Source: Nitrosospira multiformis ATCC 25196
GTDB lineage: Bacteria; Pseudomonadota; Gammaproteobacteria; Burkholderiales; Nitrosomonadaceae
Assembly (NCBI RefSeq): GCF_000196355.1
Contig: NC_007614.1
Span: forward strand, 270,001 to 302,000
DNA: 32,000 nt
Direction: 5' to 3'
Below, one piece after another: positions 8,542-28,358 of this stretch; positions within the stretch are counted from its first letter, which is position 1, and each line of letters opens with the position of its first letter. Both the position numbers and the translations under genes were made by a program. The notes under the pieces were generated by a model. It did not search any database, was not told the DNA's origin, and saw only the letters and a program-made list of their open reading frames with translations.

Positions 8542-9675
8542 ATGGTCAGGGTTACAACGCTTGTTTTATGTTTTGCTTTAACGTTTCCTTTTAGTTTCGC
8601 CTATGCTGATATAGTTTTCGATGGAAGATTAAGTAAAGGGGATTTTTCCGGTTATCGGGCGCTCGAAGCCAATGGAACGCGTTTCGGTGGTGCCTTGGCT
8701 TCTAACGGTATTCCATCCCGGCTGGACCGTGTCCGTGATCCAGCGGGTTCCGGTCAGTTGGTAATGCGGGCAACTCATATTGACGGCGATCTGCCTATAT
8801 ATGGAGGTTATCGCTCAGAATTGAGCACCTTCCATGATCCCATTGGTTCCGAACGGTGGTACTCCTGGGGCTACTATCTTCCGGAAACGTTTGCCACAGC
8901 GAAAAATAATGTCGTTATAGCGCAGATCCATAATACCCCTGATATTATGGAGACTAATAGTCGGAATCCTACTCTTGCAGTGCTGGTTCAGGGTGAGAGG
9001 ATAAAGCTCATAAATGTATTCGATTACGACAAGATTACCGCGCCAGCAGGTACTCGCCCAACCGTCGGGGTTGATTATGAACGCCGGGAATTGGCCTCTT
9101 GGGATCTTCATCCTGGACGTTGGACGTTTTTAGACTTGCACGTAAAGTGGGCTGGGAACGATACGGGTTTTCTCGAATTCTGGAAAGACGGGACACTGCT
9201 TTTCCAGGAGAAAAATCACATCAACACTTTCAATGACGAACGGGGCGTATGGTTCAAGAGCGGGCTATACGATTGGTCACCGAGTCCCGACCCTGTTTCC
9301 ACCTATTTCTCTGGAGTGATCATCAGGGACGAAAAAGAAATGTTTCAGTCCATGTTAATGTCCCGCATGCTTGAATCAAACATTTCTCTGAATCCACTTC
9401 TGCGCTGGAGCGTGGAACAGGACTTAAGAGACATGATAGGGGATGCCATTGCGCGCCGGATGCTCCGGCCAGCGGAGAACCTGATCTACAAGCATAATGA
9501 AACGCTTCATGATGCCGTCACCGGAGACGGAAAGGAAATGTTCCAGTCTATGTCAGTGTCCCTCGTGCCTGAGCCCGACATTTATTTGATGATGCTGGTC
9601 GGCGGGGCAGCCATCGGTTTCTTCACGTATAAGCGTCGAACGACCTTGCTAACAGAGAATCCTGTGCCAGCATGA
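8542..9675 (+). CDS. Secreted polysaccharide-lyase-fold (heparin lyase I / PL20-like, concanavalin-type) protein with a C-terminal PEP-CTERM sorting signal
   Basis: Signal peptide MVRVTTLVLCFALTFPFSFAYA. The central YGGYRSELS...WYSWGYYLPETF...VIAQIHNTPD...PTLAVLVQG pattern resembles the Polysacc_lyase (PF14099-type) family. The C-terminus VPEPDIYLMMLVGGAAIGFFTYKRR has the PEP motif, a TM helix and a basic tail. Confidence 0.7.
   Translation: MVRVTTLVLCFALTFPFSFAYADIVFDGRLSKGDFSGYRALEANGTRFGGALASNGIPSRLDRVRDPAGSGQLVMRATHIDGDLPIYGGYRSELSTFHDPIGSERWYSWGYYLPETFATAKNNVVIAQIHNTPDIMETNSRNPTLAVLVQGERIKLINVFDYDKITAPAGTRPTVGVDYERRELASWDLHPGRWTFLDLHVKWAGNDTGFLEFWKDGTLLFQEKNHINTFNDERGVWFKSGLYDWSPSPDPVSTYFSGVIIRDEKEMFQSMLMSRMLESNISLNPLLRWSVEQDLRDMIGDAIARRMLRPAENLIYKHNETLHDAVTGDGKEMFQSMSVSLVPEPDIYLMMLVGGAAIGFFTYKRRTTLLTENPVPA
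9331..9561 (+). repeat. Imperfect 33-bp direct repeat (27/33 identical), codon-aligned, copies 198 bp apart, inside the lyase-like PEP-CTERM gene
   Basis: Copy 1 at 9331-9363 is gaaaaagaaatgtttcagtccatgttaatgtcc. Copy 2 at 9529-9561 is ggaaaggaaatgttccagtctatgtcagtgtcc. They encode EKEMFQSMLMS and GKEMFQSMSVS. Confidence 0.85.
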
Positions 9676-13699: not shown

Positions 13700-13911
13700 A
13701 GGCTCGATCAATTTTCCTAGCTAGTCCTATCGGTCTATTGATCATTTTTCCATGGAGTGTAATCTTCCATTATCGAGGCCCGCGAATTTCTTTCGCACCT
13801 CGGTACAATAGGTATCACCAACAAAAAAATTGTCAACCACTCTTCCATATATGAAGAGTTATGCAGGACCGGTTGGCTACTTCCATGTACATGACGATTA
13901 GGAGGTATAAG

Positions 13912-14481
13912 ATGACTAAATTTCCAGTGAAACACGCTATTGCAGTTGCGGTTCTCGCGGGGGCGAGTATGGGTGCCCAAGCGGATACGATGACGGATCT
14001 CGGCACGCTATCCACGTCTACTCCCACGACTTTCTCGGGGATCGTAGGGCCCACTCATGCGGGTTTTAGCGATATCTTCACGTTTACACCGCAGGAGCCC
14101 AATTTTGGTGCTGGAGCAACGGTAGTAAACCTTCCGCTCAGCTTTGGCGGATTTAGCTTTGATACAGCCCTTGCCACCATGTCGCTTGTTTCAGCGGGCG
14201 CCGATGGGATAGCTGGTAATAGCGACGATAGCGTTCTACAGTCCGTTGTGCTTCCCTCACCCGGCAACAGTCAAGATAGCCTGACCCTGCATTGGGACAC
14301 TCCCATGTCAGGTTTGCACTATCTTAATATTACCGGTGTGGCAGTTGGCAGCGAGGGTGGTATATATAGTGGCGCAATTGCTGCAGCGATACCTGAACCC
14401 GAAACATATGCGATGCTTCTGGCTGGTTTGGGGCTCATGGGCGCCGTCGTTCGTCGCCGGGGAATGCGCAAAACTTCATAA
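13912..14481 (+). CDS. FxDxF-family PEP-CTERM protein
   Basis: GGAGG Shine-Dalgarno 6 nt before ATG 13912; the ORF-track start at 13861 adds an unlikely leader. Signal peptide MTKFPVKHAIAVAVLAGASMGAQA. FSDIF motif. C-terminus IPEPETYAMLLAGLGLMGAVVRRRGMRK. Confidence 0.8.
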   Translation: MTKFPVKHAIAVAVLAGASMGAQADTMTDLGTLSTSTPTTFSGIVGPTHAGFSDIFTFTPQEPNFGAGATVVNLPLSFGGFSFDTALATMSLVSAGADGIAGNSDDSVLQSVVLPSPGNSQDSLTLHWDTPMSGLHYLNITGVAVGSEGGIYSGAIAAAIPEPETYAMLLAGLGLMGAVVRRRGMRKTS

Positions 14482-21253: not shown

Positions 21254-22534
21254 ATGAGTGTGGTGGCAGTGGTTGGGCTAGGCTATGTGGGATTACCTTT
21301 GGCGGTGGAGTTCGGAAAAAAAAGGAAAACCATCGGCTACGATCTTTCGAGCAGCAAGATAGCAAGTTACAAGCAATTTATCGATCCGACCGGCGAGGTT
21401 TCCTCCGATGACCTGAAAGCCGCGAAGCAGCTTCATGTCACTACTGACCCGGCTGAGTTGTCACAGGCGGATTATATTGTCGTGGCCGTTCCAACACCCG
21501 TGGACGCAGCCCATCAGCCCGATTTTCGTCCTCTCATAGGTGCGAGCGAAACCGTGGGAAAACATATGAAGCGGGGAGCAATCGTTATTTACGAATCCAC
21601 CGTTTACCCGGGAGCAACCGAGGAAGTCTGTATTCCTGTCCTTGAGAAACATTCCGGCATGAAATGGAAAGACGATTTTCATGTCGGCTTCTCGCCCGAA
21701 CGGATTAACCCCGGCGACAAGCAGCATACGCTCACAAAGATTCTGAAGGTTGTCTCTGGAGACGATGAGGATACGCTGGAAAAAATTGCAGCACTTTATG
21801 AGAGCATAATTACCGCCGGCGTGCACCGTGCGTCCAGCATCAAGGTAGCGGAAGCAGCCAAAGTAATCGAAAATACTCAGCGAGACCTGAATATCGCGTT
21901 GATGAATGAACTGGCGATTATTTTCGACAAACTGGACATTGACACGCTGGAAGTGCTGCAGGCGGCTGGCACCAAATGGAATTTTTTACCCTTTCGCCCG
22001 GGCCTGGTCGGAGGCCATTGTATCGGCGTCGATCCCTACTATCTTACTCACAAGGCGGAAATGGTCGGTTATATTCCCCAGGTTATCCTCGCGGGACGCC
22101 GTATCAATGACAGTATGGCCAAATTCGTGGCGGAACAAACGATCAAACATATCATCAAGGCCGATATCAACGTTCGGAGTGCGCGTGTAAATGTTCTCGG
22201 CCTGGCCTTCAAGGAAAACTGTCCTGATCTCAGGAATTCCAAGGTTGCCGATCTGATCAGTGAACTTAAAAGCTATGGGATAGAGATTCACGTCCACGAT
22301 CCTGTAGCCAGTATTGAAGAAGCCCGCCACGAATACGGTGTGGAACTTGAATCATGGGAGGACCTTCCACGCGCGGATGCAATGATTGTTGCCGTTGCCC
22401 ACCGCCAGTTCACTGAAATGCCCTTGACCCAGTTTCAGACCAAAATCACGGACAAAGGGTGTTTCATCGATGTGAAATCCCAGTTCGATCCTGCCGCGCT
22501 GCGAGAGGCTGGCTTAAACGTGTGGAGACTGTGA
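21254..22534 (+). CDS. tviB: UDP-N-acetylhexosamine 6-dehydrogenase, TviB/WbpO family
   Basis: Long colinear matches to S. Typhi TviB as recalled: [67 protein letters not shown] and [35 protein letters not shown] Shine-Dalgarno upstream. Confidence 0.9.
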
Positions 22535-22551
22535 AGGATAGTACGCCTGGT

Positions 22552-23604
22552 ATGGCTGCTTACCCAAAATGGCTGCGGCATTTGCAGGACCATTCCTACT
22601 GCTGGCTGGTCACGGGGGTTGCGGGCTTCATCGGATCCAATCTGCTGGAGGCCTTGCTCAAGCATAATCAGAAAGTAGTCGGATTGGATAATTTTTCCAC
22701 CGGCTATTTGCGAAACCTCGAGCAGATACGGGACTTGGTCGGGGAGAAGGCTTGGGGTAATTTCAGCTTTATAGAGGGTGATATCTGTCAACTGGAAACT
22801 TGCACGAACGCATGCCAAGGTGTGGATTTCGTTTTGCACCAGGCCGCGCTGGGTTCCGTGCCGCGTTCCATTCAAGATCCCATCCGAACCAACGAAGCCA
22901 ATATTTCCGGATTTCTCAACATGCTGGTGGCGTCAAGGGATGCGCAAGTGAGGCGCTTCATCTACGCTGCCTCCAGTTCCACCTACGGCGACCACCCGGA
23001 TTTGCCAAAAGTGGAAGCGGTAATTGGACGTCCTCTTTCGCCCTATGCTGTCACCAAATATGTGAACGAACTCTACGCCGAAGTGTTCGCGCGTTGCTAT
23101 GGACTGGACTCCATTGGGCTGCGCTATTTCAACGTATTCGGTCCAAGGCAGGATCCCAATGGTGCTTATGCCGCAGTTATTCCCCAATGGGTTTCGGCAC
23201 TGATCAGAAACCAGACGCTGTATATCAATGGGGATGGGGAAACCAGCCGGGATTTCTGTTATATCGACAACGTAGTGCAAGCCAATCTTCTCGCGGCTCT
23301 CAGTGATAACACCGGAGCAGTGAACCAGATTTACAATGTGGCAGTAAATGAACGCACCAGTCTGAATCAACTGTATGGCATGATGCGCGAGCTGTTACTG
23401 GAGAAGTTTCCGGAGCTGGAGAATCATCGGCCCACGTACGTCGATTTTCGCAAGGGCGATGTGCGGCATTCACAGGCGGATATTACGAAAGCCACCCAAT
23501 TACTTGGTTTTGAACCCTCCCACCGCATCGGGGAAGGACTGAGGCAGGCAATGGGCTGGTACATCGCGCATTTGGGGGCTATGCAGGAGGCGGCTGGCGT
23601 CTAA
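22552..23604 (+). CDS. tviC: NAD-dependent UDP-N-acetylhexosamine(uronate) 4-epimerase, TviC/WbpP family
   Basis: ATG 22552 is preferred because the N-terminus [33 protein letters not shown] parallels the WbpP/TviC N-termini. Also [24 protein letters not shown] and [13 protein letters not shown]. The ORF-track start at 22459 lies inside the upstream gene. Confidence 0.85.
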
Positions 23605-23648
23605 ACGTTCGTCGGAACTTCGATTCGCGCTAATCCCCGCTTTCCGCG

Positions 23649-24263
23649 CTATTCATCCCATTTTCCCGCTTGTTTCAATTGATTCTTCAAGCCCGGTAAC
23701 GGAAATCCGAGTTCATACGCTTTCTTCGCATATGTTTTCGCCTGCTCGTAATTTTTCTGTTTCAAGTAGAGCAGGCCAAGATTGTAATTGATAGTAGGAT
23801 TTTCCGGTTCAAGGTCAATGGCTATTCCCAGTTCCTCAGTCGCCTTGTCAGTTTGTCCAGCTTTCAGCAGATAATCGCCGTATACCATTCTTACTACCGC
23901 ATCGTTTGGTTTGAATCGAATGGCGCGATCAAAAAAACATCCAACGGAATATTTTGCGCCAGCTGGTTTTAGAGTCTTGTCTCTCAATGAGAGCTTACTG
24001 AATGCGGCGAGAGCGCGATGATGGTTGGGGAACAACATAAGGGTATAACTTAAGTCCCCTCCGAGAGTTCCGGTATTTCCATGGCGCAAGCTTTCTATGT
24101 TTGAAGTAAAGTGATGTTGCTCAACAGTTCCCAAGAGTTGCTTATCCCCGCCTATATAGTCATGGACATTTATCAATTCTCCACAATAGGCAGAAGAGGT
24201 TGCATGAAGATCTGGCGCGATCAATGAAATAACCAATATCGCAATTCCGGGTATGACTTTCAT
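23649..24263 (-). CDS. Exported small TPR-repeat protein
   Basis: AAGGA Shine-Dalgarno before the second ATG (24263). Signal peptide MKVIPGIAILVISLIAPDLHA. C-terminal TPR-like repeats (YGDYLLKAGQTDKATEELGIAIDLEPENPTINYNLGLLYLKQKNYEQAKTYAKKAYELG). Confidence 0.7.
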   Translation of the reverse strand: MKVIPGIAILVISLIAPDLHATSSAYCGELINVHDYIGGDKQLLGTVEQHHFTSNIESLRHGNTGTLGGDLSYTLMLFPNHHRALAAFSKLSLRDKTLKPAGAKYSVGCFFDRAIRFKPNDAVVRMVYGDYLLKAGQTDKATEELGIAIDLEPENPTINYNLGLLYLKQKNYEQAKTYAKKAYELGFPLPGLKNQLKQAGKWDE

Positions 24264-24504
24264 TAGCGTTCCTTGCAATCAAGCTTACCTTGCTCTGTCG
24301 ACTCTCTACCTCTGTCCAGCCTGTCTTGAGGGAAGGGAGATTCCCTTAATCCCCGGTTCGATTCGAACTTGAGGCCTCTTAAAACGATTTTAAATATTCT
24401 CGAGATAGAAGGAAGTGGTTGTCAAGTTCAACCAAGACACGAGGATTTTTTGAAAGTGGTTTTCTCCGAAATCGGTTGGCCGAAATGCCAATTCAAAGCG
24501 GTTT

Positions 24505-25383
24505 TTACCAGGAGTAAAGCCATTCTTTTGTCCAGCGCGCGATCTGATCGCGCCACTCCCGCCGGGAAAAGGTATGGTTGGCTTCTGGCAGGCTGAAGCG
24601 CGAAAAGTGTGGAGAAGCCAGCAGTTTTTTCCATTTTTGTGAACCTTTGACCAGCTCGGAAAACTCCTGAGCAGTCAGGTCATTGCCGCAGAGTATCAGG
24701 AGCACTCTTCCCTGGAAACGCTCAAGCCCTTGAAACATCCGTTCCGGCAAGGGAGCCGCTTCGCAACCGCTTTTGCAGTTATTCTTTGCAGCGGGAGGTG
24801 CAATTTCCCCTCTTTCGGCTACGACTGTACCAATAGTGCCGAAAAGTGATCTTGCAGACGCGGCATAGTTGAAATTTCCGCTCCATATTTTGCCCCAGAG
24901 TTCACGATCAAAAATGCGCGAAATGTAATAGTGCTTCAAATACGCTCTGGCAGAGCCTTCCTCCGTTCTTACCCATGGATTCAGCAGGACCAGTCCGGTC
25001 ACGCGCGGGTCCTGATAAGCATAAAACAATGCAGCCGATGCTGCATCGCATAGTCCCAGAATAACCAGTTCGTTCAGGGAAGGGATTTCTGCGAAGAGAC
25101 GATCTATTCCAGAGCGGACATCATCTTTCACGTTTTCAAAAGTCCTCGCGTCTCCCTCACTATCACCCATGCCGCGGAAATCAAAACGGAAGACCGGTAT
25201 GCCATTCGCCGCCAAGTGGCGGGCAAGGAGGGTAAACTGGCGATGGCTTCCTGCGCGATATTGAGGTCCTCCAACGAGAATAAGAATACCCCTTGAAGCA
25301 GCCTGTTCAGGCAAGGTTAAAATACCGTAAAGGCAATCGCTCCCACAGCAAAAAACGATGGGACGCTCCTCATAATTCATCAT
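24505..25383 (-). CDS. Alpha/beta hydrolase, exosortase A system-associated 'hydrolase 1' family
   Basis: The start MMNYEERPIVF at 25383 forms an ATGA overlap with the upstream stop; the ORF-track start at 25509 lies inside the upstream gene. Alpha/beta-fold landmarks: ILILVGGPQYRAGSHR, FRFDFRGMGDSEG, the elbow VILGLCDAASAAL, then LCGNDLT and EANHTF. The family call is from my memory of TIGR03100. Confidence 0.8.
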   Translation of the reverse strand: MMNYEERPIVFCCGSDCLYGILTLPEQAASRGILILVGGPQYRAGSHRQFTLLARHLAANGIPVFRFDFRGMGDSEGDARTFENVKDDVRSGIDRLFAEIPSLNELVILGLCDAASAALFYAYQDPRVTGLVLLNPWVRTEEGSARAYLKHYYISRIFDRELWGKIWSGNFNYAASARSLFGTIGTVVAERGEIAPPAAKNNCKSGCEAAPLPERMFQGLERFQGRVLLILCGNDLTAQEFSELVKGSQKWKKLLASPHFSRFSLPEANHTFSRREWRDQIARWTKEWLYSW

Positions 25384-26231
25384 GCGGCCAGTGCAAAAAC
25401 GCTCGTCGTTGCCGATATCAGTTCGGCACATTCCGAGATTTCCTGGGTCGCCCAGAACGGCTGGCACGGTATGAGATGGACGTGGAGGTCGACACCCTTC
25501 TGCTTCCACTTCTCGGTTATCTTTGCCCCGGCAGAAGTCATGGAACGCCCCGGCTCAGGGATGATCTCGAACCAGTGGACGGCGCTTTTTCCAACGGCCA
25601 ATTCAGCCGCCTTCAAGCCATCGATTGCATTTGCGAGTCCGGGTGCAAGCTCGTATCCCGCTATTTCCAGTGTTTCACCCTCTTCCATTTGCTTGCGCAA
25701 CATAGCCGTTCCTGTCGATTTTTCCTCGGAGACGGTGGAGAATAGTTCACCTGCCATTCGCAATCGCAAGAACTGACTCAGGAAGGTTTCTCCGCTGATA
25801 ACGGGTTGCCATAAAATGATGCGGTCAACGGCATTTGCTGCATCTTGTGCGAAGTCCAGGGCCAGCAGCGCGCCCAGGCGTAATCCCCACAAACTTACCG
25901 GAACGGCAAGGCGGCTCTCAAGCCAGAGTCGGGCGCGGGCCAGATCCTGCTTCCAGATGTCCCACCGGGCATCGCGAAACTCGCCACTGCTATCGCCACA
26001 CCCAAAAAGATCCATTTGCAGCACTCCCCATCCAATCGCGGCGAAAGCTCTTGCCTGGACCGCGGCCATCCGCCGCGCTTTGTTCATTTCGTCGCCGAAG
26101 GGGTGTACATACAGAATGGTCCCCTGGCATTTCCTGCCTGGATGCGGCTGATGAAAAAGGCAGAAACGCTGTCCCAACTCGGTTTGCAAAAAGAAAGGCT
26201 CTGCATGAATCGAGCCGGGATCCATTTTCAT
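25380..26231 (-). CDS. Alpha/beta hydrolase-fold protein, exosortase A system-associated 'hydrolase 2' family
   Basis: ILYVHPFGDEMN, LQMDLFGCGDSSG and the elbow VSLWGLRLGALLAL. Sits between the ACP gene and hydrolase 1 and is coupled to both by ATGA overlaps. The family call is from my memory of TIGR03101. Confidence 0.75.
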   Translation of the reverse strand: MKMDPGSIHAEPFFLQTELGQRFCLFHQPHPGRKCQGTILYVHPFGDEMNKARRMAAVQARAFAAIGWGVLQMDLFGCGDSSGEFRDARWDIWKQDLARARLWLESRLAVPVSLWGLRLGALLALDFAQDAANAVDRIILWQPVISGETFLSQFLRLRMAGELFSTVSEEKSTGTAMLRKQMEEGETLEIAGYELAPGLANAIDGLKAAELAVGKSAVHWFEIIPEPGRSMTSAGAKITEKWKQKGVDLHVHLIPCQPFWATQEISECAELISATTSVFALAA

Positions 26232-26479
26232 TCCGCCAGCTTCTGCTCGACGAATTGGGTCAGGCTGCCGACAGTTTCGAAAGTTTTTGCACTGATCTCA
26301 TCATCGTCAACCGTGATGTCGAAGTGGTCCTCGAGAGCGGTGATTACATTGACGACAGCCATTGAATCCAGTTCGGGAATGGCCCCAAGCAAGGGGGAAT
26401 CCGCATTGAGCGAATTTCTTCTTTCCCCGAGGCTCAATACGTCAGATAGGATGTTTCTCACTTCTTCAATATGCTGCAT
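26228..26479 (-). CDS. Acyl carrier protein (phosphopantetheine-binding)
   Basis: 83 aa and acidic. The phosphopantetheine attachment motif PELDSMAVVNVITALE sits at the expected helix-2 position. GCGGAG Shine-Dalgarno upstream. ATGA overlap with hydrolase 2. Confidence 0.85.
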   Translation of the reverse strand: MQHIEEVRNILSDVLSLGERRNSLNADSPLLGAIPELDSMAVVNVITALEDHFDITVDDDEISAKTFETVGSLTQFVEQKLAE

Positions 26480-26882
26480 ATTTACTCCGCGCTGTTTATT
26501 TTTGAGGAGACGTCATTGCTGCAATCCCTGAGTATCAAGATGAAGTTTTCAAAATGAACCGGAGGTGCGAAGGCAAATGAAAATAGGATAAGGGCTGCGA
26601 GACGGCGCACTTCATCTTTCCGAAGATGACAACCCGCGGTGGTAGTGCAAGCGTTTATAAAGCGCTGCTCCTTCAGCATAGGCTGGCTGGACAGCGATAC
26701 AAATTCCCTTCCTGTCACTGTTTTTGCTGCTTCCGCCGGTAATTTTGCCGTCCTGGATAAAAATCCGCTAATGGTACTACAAGTCGCGGGACGTTACTTC
26801 CCGAAGGTAAAAATCACTTTACTTTTCAATGGATTTTCTTGTAACCTTCGAACGTCTTGTCTTTTATCAGGGAAACAATAAC

Positions 26883-28358
26883 ATGAAAAAACTGAAGGAA
26901 TTCAGGAAGCTGAAGTCGGGGGAGGATTCAGCGGGCTCGAGCAATGTTCGCCCGGCTGGTCCGATTCTTCCTGTTTTATTCGTCGCCGCTTCTTTCCCGG
27001 TTTGTATGGGACAAGTAAACGCCGAAACCTCGTTCGAACGGTTATCGTCCTTGCTGGCAGGAACGCCGCAAGGCGGGTGGGTCAAGGCGAGCACCAACTT
27101 ATTTTCCGATGCATGGGCAACGGGAGCAGATGCAGCTCCTGGCCCGACGAGCGCGGTTGTTCGTGCATGGAGTTCATTTGCCTGGGATTCCGCTCGCGGA
27201 GATCTGCTGTTATGGGGCGGCGGCCACGGGAATTACGTGGGCAACGAAATGTATGTGTGGGACGGCGCTACGGGGAGTTGGGGCCGAGGTTCCTTAGCCA
27301 GCAGAATAGATTCGAAGGGTTTTATTGTCGACAATGCTGCGCCTCAATCCGCCCATACCTATGACAATAATGTCTATCTTCCGGCAAATGATATGTTCCT
27401 TACATTCGGGGGGGCTGCAGCGCCAGGCGGCGGCGCGTTCCTCCAAACGGATGGAACTAATGTGAGCGTGGCGGGACCTTTTATGTGGGATCCAAGAAAG
27501 GCTGATCCGAACAAGGTGGGGGGTACTACCGGCTCGGGCTGGAATACGACCCATATAGCGCAAGGGGGCAATATGTGGCTCGACCGACACGTATCGACGG
27601 CGACCCATATTGACGGTACAACGGCTTATCGCATGGAAAACGGTAAAGACGTCGTTTATGTCACAGCGGATATGGCAGCCTCGGGTTTTCCTTCGCTTTA
27701 CCGCTATACGGCGGGGGACGTGAGGAGTGGCGGCCAGGATACCTGGGAAAGAGTTGGCCGCTCATGGAACACGGTGGGGTACCAGGGCGCTGGAACAATT
27801 GATACAGACCACAATCTCTACATCCGAACCGCCAGCCCGCGGCCCAGCTATGCGTCCGATCTGACAATATGGGATCTGGACAATGCCAATCCCGATCACA
27901 ACTGGGATATCGGAATAAACCTGGTAAAGGCGGATGGCAGCGACTTTGTGATGACGCCGTATTTCGGTATCGATTATGATTCTGCCAACAACTCGATCGT
28001 GCTTTGGGATGGCCGCGACGGCGGAGGAACAGTCTGGTCAGCCAATGTCCTTACAGATGCCGATGGCAACATTGGTTCCCATACTACCTGGGTGGTTCAT
28101 GAGATAGAAAGCGCTACCGGGGATCATCCTCTCGGCAATCATGAGACGGGAGTTCTTGGCAAATGGAAATATGATCCCACGCTTGGGGCATTCATAGCGC
28201 TCGATGAGGCCGCAAAAACGGCCGATGGCAAGTGGGATGCCGCTGTGTGGTTATACAAACCGGTTGCGGGGCCCGTTCCTGAACCTCAGGCATACGCACT
28301 CTTACTTGCAGGACTCGGACTTATTGGGTGGGCTGTCCGTGGTCGGCGCGCAGGTTGA
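26883..28358 (+). CDS. PEP-CTERM protein with a Kelch/galactose-oxidase-like beta-propeller domain
   Basis: ATG 26883 with an AGGGAAA Shine-Dalgarno. Signal peptide ...PILPVLFVAASFPVCMGQVNA. Kelch-like blades (DLLLWGGGHGNYVGNEMYVWDGATGSW; NSIVLWDGRDGGGTVWS). C-terminus VPEPQAYALLLAGLGLIGWAVRGRRAG. Confidence 0.8.
   Translation: MKKLKEFRKLKSGEDSAGSSNVRPAGPILPVLFVAASFPVCMGQVNAETSFERLSSLLAGTPQGGWVKASTNLFSDAWATGADAAPGPTSAVVRAWSSFAWDSARGDLLLWGGGHGNYVGNEMYVWDGATGSWGRGSLASRIDSKGFIVDNAAPQSAHTYDNNVYLPANDMFLTFGGAAAPGGGAFLQTDGTNVSVAGPFMWDPRKADPNKVGGTTGSGWNTTHIAQGGNMWLDRHVSTATHIDGTTAYRMENGKDVVYVTADMAASGFPSLYRYTAGDVRSGGQDTWERVGRSWNTVGYQGAGTIDTDHNLYIRTASPRPSYASDLTIWDLDNANPDHNWDIGINLVKADGSDFVMTPYFGIDYDSANNSIVLWDGRDGGGTVWSANVLTDADGNIGSHTTWVVHEIESATGDHPLGNHETGVLGKWKYDPTLGAFIALDEAAKTADGKWDAAVWLYKPVAGPVPEPQAYALLLAGLGLIGWAVRGRRAG

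Follow-up and report, generated by a model that had tools for sequence, protein, structure and literature searches.

The locus studied here raises the question of which chemistry is carried out by a small acyl carrier protein (ACP) and two hydrolase-like proteins whose genes lie side by side on the minus strand at positions 24505 to 26479 of a 32-kb stretch of the Nitrosospira multiformis ATCC 25196 genome (NC_007614.1, positions 270,001 to 302,000). This whole stretch is referred to as the window, and the coordinates below are positions in it unless another locus is named. PEP-CTERM/exosortase systems occur widely in bacteria from soil, sediment and wastewater, among them nitrifiers and floc formers, and to our knowledge the attachment target of exosortase A and the roles of its 'associated' enzymes have remained obscure ever since the 2006 description of the system. 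The two hydrolases belong to TIGR03100 (hydrolase 1) and TIGR03101 (hydrolase 2), both of them 'hypoth_equivalog' models named by context only. According to a prediction made earlier from the letters of the window (the original prediction), neither family has a known substrate or product, and this was borne out, in that no characterisation, substrate, product or active-site description of either family was found in a searchable literature of 8 million papers and the hydrolase and ACP genes are unmentioned in Haft 2006 and in the Aquincola floc paper. We suggest a reading of the accessory genes as a pathway of on-carrier decarboxylation, in the style of butirosin and vicenistatin, that ends in a cysteine transferase and a dead paralogue, which would provide a concrete and cheaply testable chemical hypothesis for the long-standing problem of the unknown accessory genes.

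The ACP gene (26228..26479, 83 amino acids) is preceded by a GGAG Shine-Dalgarno sequence at 26485..26488, 5 nucleotides (nt) 5' of its ATG, and is followed by the genes for hydrolase 2 (25380..26231, 283 amino acids) and hydrolase 1 (24505..25383, 292 amino acids). Inspection of the sequence recovered both ATGA overlaps by which the three minus-strand genes had been said to be chained, the first joining the ACP stop to the hydrolase 2 start (26228..26231) and the second the hydrolase 2 stop to the hydrolase 1 start (25380..25383), as well as all the coordinates given for them. For hydrolase 1 a mechanical list of open reading frames (ORFs) also offers a GTG at 25509 as start; this start was rejected and the ATG at 25383 preferred because the TIGR03100 profile begins at residue 6 of the 292-residue form. 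Hydrolase 1 scored 338.4 bits against TIGR03100 (cut-off 168.45; residues 6-290 on positions 2-273 of the 274-position model) and hydrolase 2 scored 323.6 bits against TIGR03101 (cut-off 202.75; residues 12-279 on positions 2-265 of 266). Both window proteins are thus ordinary, full-length members, far over the curated cut-offs. Among genomes the three products match that of N. multiformis Nl7 best, at amino-acid identities of 92-95%.

The original prediction had pointed to a cysteine in hydrolase 1 at the place of the GxSxG serine, in ILGLCDAAS, and to a plausible aspartate (LCGNDLT) and histidine (EANHTF) downstream of it. These residues are Cys112 (codon 25050-25048), Asp235 (codon 24681-24679) and His270 (codon 24576-24574). 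When the hydrolase 1 profile was aligned to solved esterases of the S33/Hydrolase_4 group (9pjb, 8b4u and 9h0z), GLCDA fell on GLSMG and, in the same alignment, ANHTFS fell on GDHTFS; the Cys112 column is the catalytic Ser and the His270 column the catalytic His of these esterases. In the AlphaFold2 (AF2) model, strand 105-111, Cys112 and helix 113-122 form a nucleophile elbow, and Asp235 and His270 follow strands 226-232 and 260-265, respectively, in the canonical acid and base loops. Conservation was assessed in 87 sequences with identities down to about 42%, comprising 79 ORFs from 80 loci of different beta- and gamma-proteobacterial species, the C-terminal halves of 7 fusion proteins (see below) and the window protein. 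All three residues were found in each of these (87/87), and the Cys was also present in 120/120 closer database homologues. Alignment to solved alpha/beta hydrolases and conservation across the family were the checks that had been proposed, and by both of them the Cys occupies the nucleophile column. Hydrolase 1 therefore has all three catalytic residues at canonical positions, with Cys and not Ser as the nucleophile, and these data show or strongly support that it is an alpha/beta-hydrolase fold enzyme in which the nucleophile Cys112 is backed by His270 and Asp235. We predict that it is a thioester-forming acyltransferase that acts on the loaded ACP. The same Cys-His-Asp chemistry and fold are found in the polyhydroxyalkanoate (PHA) synthase PhaC and in dienelactone hydrolase, and in PhaC a covalent thioester arises from a substrate that is itself a thioester. 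No specific relationship to these two enzymes was detected; neither was among the best 50 fold matches listed, and a single dienelactone hydrolase chain matched hydrolase 2 with E 0.0064.

In hydrolase 2 the residue expected at the equivalent elbow was an arginine within LWGLRLGALL, and this is Arg118 (codon 25880-25878). The placement is supported by three comparisons that agree with each other. GLRLG falls on GLSMG of 7q4h and 9h0z in the profile alignment; the AF2 model, with a predicted local distance difference test (pLDDT) score of 93.1, has strand 112-117, Arg118 at the elbow and helix 119-129; and hhalign of the two family profiles aligned Arg118 with Cys112 (probability 97.6%), which indicates that hydrolases 1 and 2 are paralogues. 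Arg118 was found in 120/120 close homologues and in 148/151 family sequences, the latter being the window protein and 150 representatives of 50%-identity clusters (37-54% identity), and it can be regarded as a signature of the family. It had also been noted that no obvious Ser or Cys could substitute for the nucleophile and that the protein might be non-catalytic, and the family data extend this to the other two positions. The position of the catalytic His is taken by a conserved Phe259-Trp260 pair (25457-25452; 141 and 143 of 151, respectively), the acid loop is variable without any conserved acid, and no Ser, Cys or His is conserved in the family. Given an Arg at the elbow, Phe-Trp at the His position and no acid, the whole triad is gone and not just the nucleophile. 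The fold itself has been kept, with TM-scores against 7q4h, 7q4j and 9h0z of 0.69-0.72 when normalised to the query and 0.76-0.79 when normalised to the target. It is thus shown or strongly supported that hydrolase 2 is a paralogue of hydrolase 1 in which nucleophile, acid and base have all been lost and the elbow bears an invariant Arg118. It is probably a non-catalytic partner, and an Arg-for-Ser elbow across an entire family would make it a new and clear-cut case of a bacterial pseudoenzyme partner.

The best profile and fold matches of both hydrolases are S33/Hydrolase_4 esterases (TTL lipase 7q4h/9h0z, PET46 8b4u, MHETase 9pjb and feruloyl esterases), to which they are only 15-20% identical in sequence. 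The strand-elbow-helix core, an R-G-x-G-D-S loop and the D/N-H-T-F loop of the catalytic His are shared, whereas the Ser elbow (GLSMG) of the esterases is replaced by Cys in hydrolase 1 and by Arg, with no His or acid, in hydrolase 2.

That the Cys enzyme and its Arg paralogue might form a heterodimer had been put forward as a possibility, and independent support for this was obtained from natural gene fusions. Among the 150 best cluster representatives of hydrolase 2 (50% identity), 8 are single proteins of 581-619 amino acids with hydrolase 2 as the N-terminal and hydrolase 1 as the C-terminal half. The fusions are not assembly accidents, given that one (WP_090724448.1) comes from the isolate genome of Neptunomonas qingdaonensis, another (P0511) is present on 18 contigs, and the JGI annotation of the fusion proteins reads hydrolase 1/hydrolase 2. 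Fusion in gene order is classical evidence for a physical complex. In the unfused state the genes are also closely linked. ACP, hydrolase 2 and hydrolase 1 were all present in 76 of the 80 loci, nearly always in this order and on one strand, as in the window; the two hydrolase genes overlapped by 4 nt in 41/75 loci and by 1-26 nt in 65/75, and ACP and hydrolase 2 overlapped by 4 nt in 28/69 loci. Linkage of the two hydrolases is obligate and extends to fusion in some lineages. Since the two proteins are fused in some lineages and encoded by overlapping genes in a fixed order, it appears from these gene data that they most likely work as one complex. Two further 'long hydrolase 2' proteins (P0252 and P0524, 647 and 678 amino acids) were considered as a new type of fusion and rejected. 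Their N-terminal extension is rich in Arg, Pro and Gly and has no Pfam domain, and they were treated as wrong-frame read-through because the extension matches unclustered, probably non-coding ORFs located 5' of ACP elsewhere.

The third protein has the properties of a carrier. It matched PF00550 with 32.3 bits, above the gathering score of 20.8, and the phosphopantetheine-attachment serine that had been recognised in LDSMAV is Ser39 (codon 26365-26363, in PELDSMAV), which corresponds to the D-S-x serine expected where helix 2 begins in such proteins and is kept in 72/72 orthologues. As judged from sequence, the 83-residue protein is shown or strongly supported to be a free-standing carrier protein whose phosphopantetheine serine is invariant, and its modification and loading are predicted. 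It is 78% identical (E 3e-34) to PDB 2lki, an orthologue with a solved structure, which is an unpublished structural-genomics entry deposited as 'putative uncharacterized protein' and which is probably a nuclear magnetic resonance structure from Nitrosomonas europaea. No publication describing 2lki was found in the searchable literature. Weak matches were obtained to the carrier protein VinL (5czd_B, E 4e-4) and, below threshold, to DltC (24.3 bits), and none of the NCBIfam ACP equivalog models reached its cut-off.

Which group this carrier holds may be indicated by the genes that accompany it in other genomes. A TIGR03098 ligase was located within 10 kb (<=10 kb) of the three genes in 31/80 loci and a TIGR03099 decarboxylase, a pyridoxal phosphate (PLP) enzyme, in 28/80. 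Nitrosospira genomes encode the ligase on other contigs than those with the hydrolase genes. A second locus was found on the contig that carries P0448, a ligase protein assigned by NCBI to Nitrosospira lacus (L081, 10001-14810), with the gene order TIGR03013 glycosyltransferase (EpsB_2), PrsK, PrsR, TIGR03098 ligase, TIGR03099 decarboxylase and an AsnB-like gene; the ligase and decarboxylase genes overlap by 4 nt. In the Nitrosospira lineage the genes of the system are divided between two loci. The AsnB-like amidotransferase of the second locus scored 295 bits on TIGR03108, far under the cut-off of 817, and was for this reason taken as a distinct, unnamed paralogue.

The closest solved relative of the decarboxylase is BtrK (266 bits, E 6e-78), deposited as 'L-glutamyl-[BtrI acyl-carrier protein] decarboxylase', as compared with 164 bits for the best diaminopimelate decarboxylase. 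For the ligase, the best solved relatives over the whole length are adenylation domains of nonribosomal peptide synthetases (NRPS), of which it keeps the A4 Asp and the A10 Lys, and in the specificity region (A4-A6) VinN was the only PDB match at E <= 1e-8. Ligase residues Asp217, Ser283 and Arg315 align with VinN Asp230, Ser299 and Arg331, where the VinN numbers were derived by assuming a 16-residue tag offset in the PDB chain that is self-consistent at all three residues. Of the ligase copies from the loci, 33/33, 27/33 and 30/33, respectively, retain these ligase residues, and all three motifs are present in 120/120 database homologues. In VinN these are substrate-recognition residues, with the Ser and Arg binding the alpha-carboxylate (PMC7756342). 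In the paradigm to which such enzymes belong, Glu or Asp is ligated through its side-chain carboxyl to a free-standing ACP, and BtrK, VinO, CtaF and FlvO then remove the alpha-carboxyl on the carrier to give a 4-aminobutyryl (GABA)- or beta-alanine-type thioester (PMC11350588). The idea that the ACP tethers an acyl or aminoacyl group can accordingly be kept in part: by the homology of the partner enzymes to BtrK and VinN, a beta-alanyl- or GABA-type group derived from a side-chain-tethered acidic amino acid appears a more likely cargo than a generic acyl group.

Based on these observations we propose that the operon encodes the carrier and the off-loading enzymes, one half of a small thiotemplated pathway of the XrtA/PEP-CTERM exopolysaccharide (EPS) system, a proposal in which our belief and our doubt are evenly balanced. 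The VinN-like TIGR03098 ligase would adenylate an Asp- or Glu-type amino acid and load it onto the ACP via the side-chain carboxylate, and the BtrK/VinO-like TIGR03099 enzyme would strip off the alpha-carboxyl on the carrier, leaving a beta-alanyl- or 4-aminobutyryl-type thioester. These two steps are deduced from the homology of the partner genes, which are elsewhere in Nitrosospira and adjacent in many other genomes. Cys112 would then attack the ACP thioester, bind the omega-aminoacyl group in a second thioester and hand it to a cytoplasmic amine or hydroxyl, the likeliest acceptor being a nucleotide-sugar or a lipid-linked EPS repeat unit. Hydrolase 2 would provide a docking or anion-binding site for the ACP arm or the acceptor, where Arg118 would likely bind a phosphate or carboxylate. 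The transfer by Cys112 and the docking by hydrolase 2 are steps that we infer. Neither hydrolase has a recognisable signal peptide as judged by eye from the N-termini, and both were therefore taken as cytoplasmic. With a thiol as nucleophile the acyl group stays activated, which would suit transfer, and the off-loading enzymes of butirosin and closthioamide biosynthesis are Cys enzymes of a different fold. Recurrent neighbours, namely TviB/TviC-type genes for UDP-GalNAcA, a DegT-type aminotransferase and a GNAT enzyme, suggest candidate acceptors. As far as we could find, three elements of this description are new, namely the family-wide Cys triad of hydrolase 1, the Arg/Phe-Trp/acid-less state of hydrolase 2 with its fusions, and the interpretation of the five 'exosortase A-associated' genes as a pathway of the Btr/Vin type whose off-loading module differs.

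Several points weigh against this proposal. The window gives no indication of the ACP cargo or of the acceptor, and no exosortase, ligase or decarboxylase gene was found in its 32 kb; that the ligase and decarboxylase use the ACP of the window is deduced from co-location in other genomes, and the comparison with VinN depends on the tag offset mentioned above. Confidence in the AF2 model of hydrolase 1 is only moderate (pLDDT 74.4); its core is good, and its lid (residues ~141-222) is poorly predicted. A Cys-triad alpha/beta hydrolase can also act as a plain hydrolase, as dienelactone hydrolase does. Finally, a GNAT gene (PF13480 Acetyltransf_6, BspF-like) lies directly 5' of ACP in 21 loci, and in these the upstream enzyme could be the real transferase.

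The most serious alternative is that hydrolase 1 is a dedicated thioesterase, used for type-II-like editing or for product release, which hydrolyses the thioester on the ACP, frees a small acid or amine and has hydrolase 2 as scaffold only. The nearest folds are those of esterases and lipases, the matches include the myristoyl-ACP thioesterase LuxD (1tht), DcsB and CurM-TE, and the triad geometry of hydrolase 1 is intact, all of which would fit such an enzyme. On the other hand, to hydrolyse a thioester of the beta-alanyl or GABA type would mean wasting an ATP-dependent, carrier-bound route on products that free decarboxylases make directly, and free beta-alanine is not an intermediate in the bolagladin system (PMC7756342). 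The strict retention of Cys in place of Ser would preserve the energy of the thioester, which favours transfer. Given these arguments we regard the thioesterase as unlikely.

A more far-reaching version of the transfer proposal, which we consider a long shot, would have the five genes, those for ligase, BtrK-like decarboxylase, ACP, Cys hydrolase and Arg pseudo-hydrolase, place a free primary amine, of the beta-alanyl- or 4-aminobutyryl-type, on the EPS repeat unit or lipid carrier. This amine would be the long-sought nucleophile with which exosortase A resolves its acyl-enzyme and so would covalently attach PEP-CTERM proteins to the matrix, and the hydrolase pair would represent an obligate heterodimer of a kind not described before, made of a Cys-triad alpha/beta hydrolase and its Arg-elbow dead paralogue.

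It is also conceivable that the ACP carries a fatty acyl chain and that the pathway serves lipidation. The ligase carries an acyl-CoA ligase annotation and scores 300-320 bits against fatty-acid-CoA ligase families, synthases of N-acyl amino acids are cited as being genetically linked to PEP-CTERM/exosortase genes (Craig et al. 2011, cited in PMC4897644), and the window contains a desaturase-like ORF (fatty-acid-desaturase family, PF00487; 19580..20752, plus strand), which is located in the sugar-nucleotide region between the rml genes and tviB. The ligase has nevertheless retained the NRPS A4 Asp and A10 Lys and the VinN Ser and Arg that bind an alpha-carboxylate, the genes for it and for a BtrK-like decarboxylase, an enzyme that needs an amino-acid substrate, overlap by 4 nt, and the ACP stays under the cut-off of every equivalog model for the ACPs of fatty-acid synthesis. 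We therefore find lipidation very improbable.

We are equally sceptical of the idea that hydrolase 2 is itself active by a non-canonical mechanism, for example through Arg118 with a Glu or Asp, or through the invariant Asp80-Ser81. What speaks for this is the density of invariant polar residues (Glu48, Asn50, Arg53, Arg54, Asp74, Asp80, Ser81, Arg118, Arg156, Glu189 and Tyr193), which exceeds the needs of a pure scaffold. The invariant G-D-S was considered as an alternative active site and rejected, given that the G-x-G-D-S loop is structural in hydrolase 1 and in the active esterases that share it; no Ser, Cys or His stands at any triad position, and an Arg at the elbow is a poor nucleophile. 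The last alternative, a PhaC-like polymerase in which Cys112 holds the growing chain and condenses omega-aminoacyl thioesters into a matrix oligo-amide, would combine the PHA-synthase solution of a Cys-His-Asp triad on an alpha/beta fold with an inferred substrate that has both a thioester and a free amine, and thiotemplated oligo-beta-alanine assembly is used in closthioamide biosynthesis (PMC11350588), but it is hardly credible, since the best 60 sequence matches and best 50 fold matches listed include no PHA synthase, PhaC is twice as large as hydrolase 1 and there is no evidence for such a polymer.

The proposed pathway of loading, on-carrier decarboxylation and transfer can be compared with three known systems. 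With butirosin BtrI/BtrJ/BtrK/BtrH it shares a stand-alone carrier, ATP-dependent side-chain loading of an acidic amino acid and on-carrier decarboxylation (PMC11350588). Off-loading would be performed here by a Cys alpha/beta hydrolase and a dead paralogue and not by BtrH, and the context is EPS/PEP-CTERM, whereas butirosin is an antibiotic. The partner ligase here is an adenylating enzyme of the ANL family, whereas BtrJ is an ATP-grasp enzyme. The likeness to vicenistatin VinN/VinL/VinO (also FlvN/L/O, CtaD/E/F and BolO/C/N) consists of the VinN-type ligase residues, a VinO/BtrK-type decarboxylase and the weak ACP-VinL match; unlike in those systems there is no second adenylating enzyme, VinK-type acyltransferase, polyketide synthase or NRPS nearby, and the enzymes of the later steps would be the hydrolase 1/2 pair. 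DltA/DltC/DltB/DltD likewise use an adenylating enzyme and a small carrier to put an aminoacyl group on a surface polymer, but in the present case there is no MBOAT or DltD homologue, a decarboxylase is involved and the hydrolases were taken as cytoplasmic.

The wider content of the window consists of sugar-nucleotide genes, glycosyltransferases and three PEP-CTERM-tagged ORFs, all on the plus strand (8542-9675, 13861-14481 and 26829-28358); a polysaccharide-lyase domain (PF14099) is present in one of these, another is a member of the FxDxF family and one, at 26829..28358, encodes 509 amino acids and is divergent from the ACP operon. The label 'exosortase-A accessory' rests on the naming of the families and on context in other genomes. 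TviB-like UDP-GlcNAc 6-dehydrogenase and TviC-like 4-epimerase genes for UDP-GalNAcA synthesis (21254-23604, plus strand) converge on the operon in the window and in about 30 of the 80 loci, and given that genes of this type recur beside the operon, they suggest that the associated polymer contains a uronic-acid sugar. On the 3' side of hydrolase 1, on the same strand and after a gap of 226 nt, lies a gene for a secreted protein with tetratricopeptide repeats (TPR) that matches Pfam TPR families (23649..24278, minus strand, 209 amino acids), with homologues so placed in 36/80 loci. In many loci a GT4-like gene of 430 amino acids lies between hydrolase 1 and the TPR gene, and this gene is absent in the window.

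A scan of 23500-27000 for sigma-70 promoters and intrinsic terminators gave no excess over the shuffled expectation, and one 'terminator' at 25049-25026, inside the hydrolase 1 coding sequence, was taken as chance. The sigma-54 consensus search returned 12 matches where 16.7 were expected. The sole site in the window with one mismatch to the -24/-12 consensus is TGTCAC-N5-TTGCT at 26713-26728 (plus strand), about 100 nt 5' of the gene for the 509-residue PEP-CTERM protein, in the divergent intergenic region that this gene has in common with the ACP operon. It was rated as weak because the -24 box is without GG and the total count is below chance; PEP-CTERM genes of Aquincola are RpoN-dependent (PMC9850573).

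Neither the DegT-type aminotransferase nor the GNAT gene that stand 5' of ACP in 21-23 loci is present in the window. In the Oxalobacteraceae (L056, 7508-8836; L054, 7558-8805; and 20-odd other loci) these two genes adjoin ACP, and the ligase and decarboxylase genes are divergent from them.

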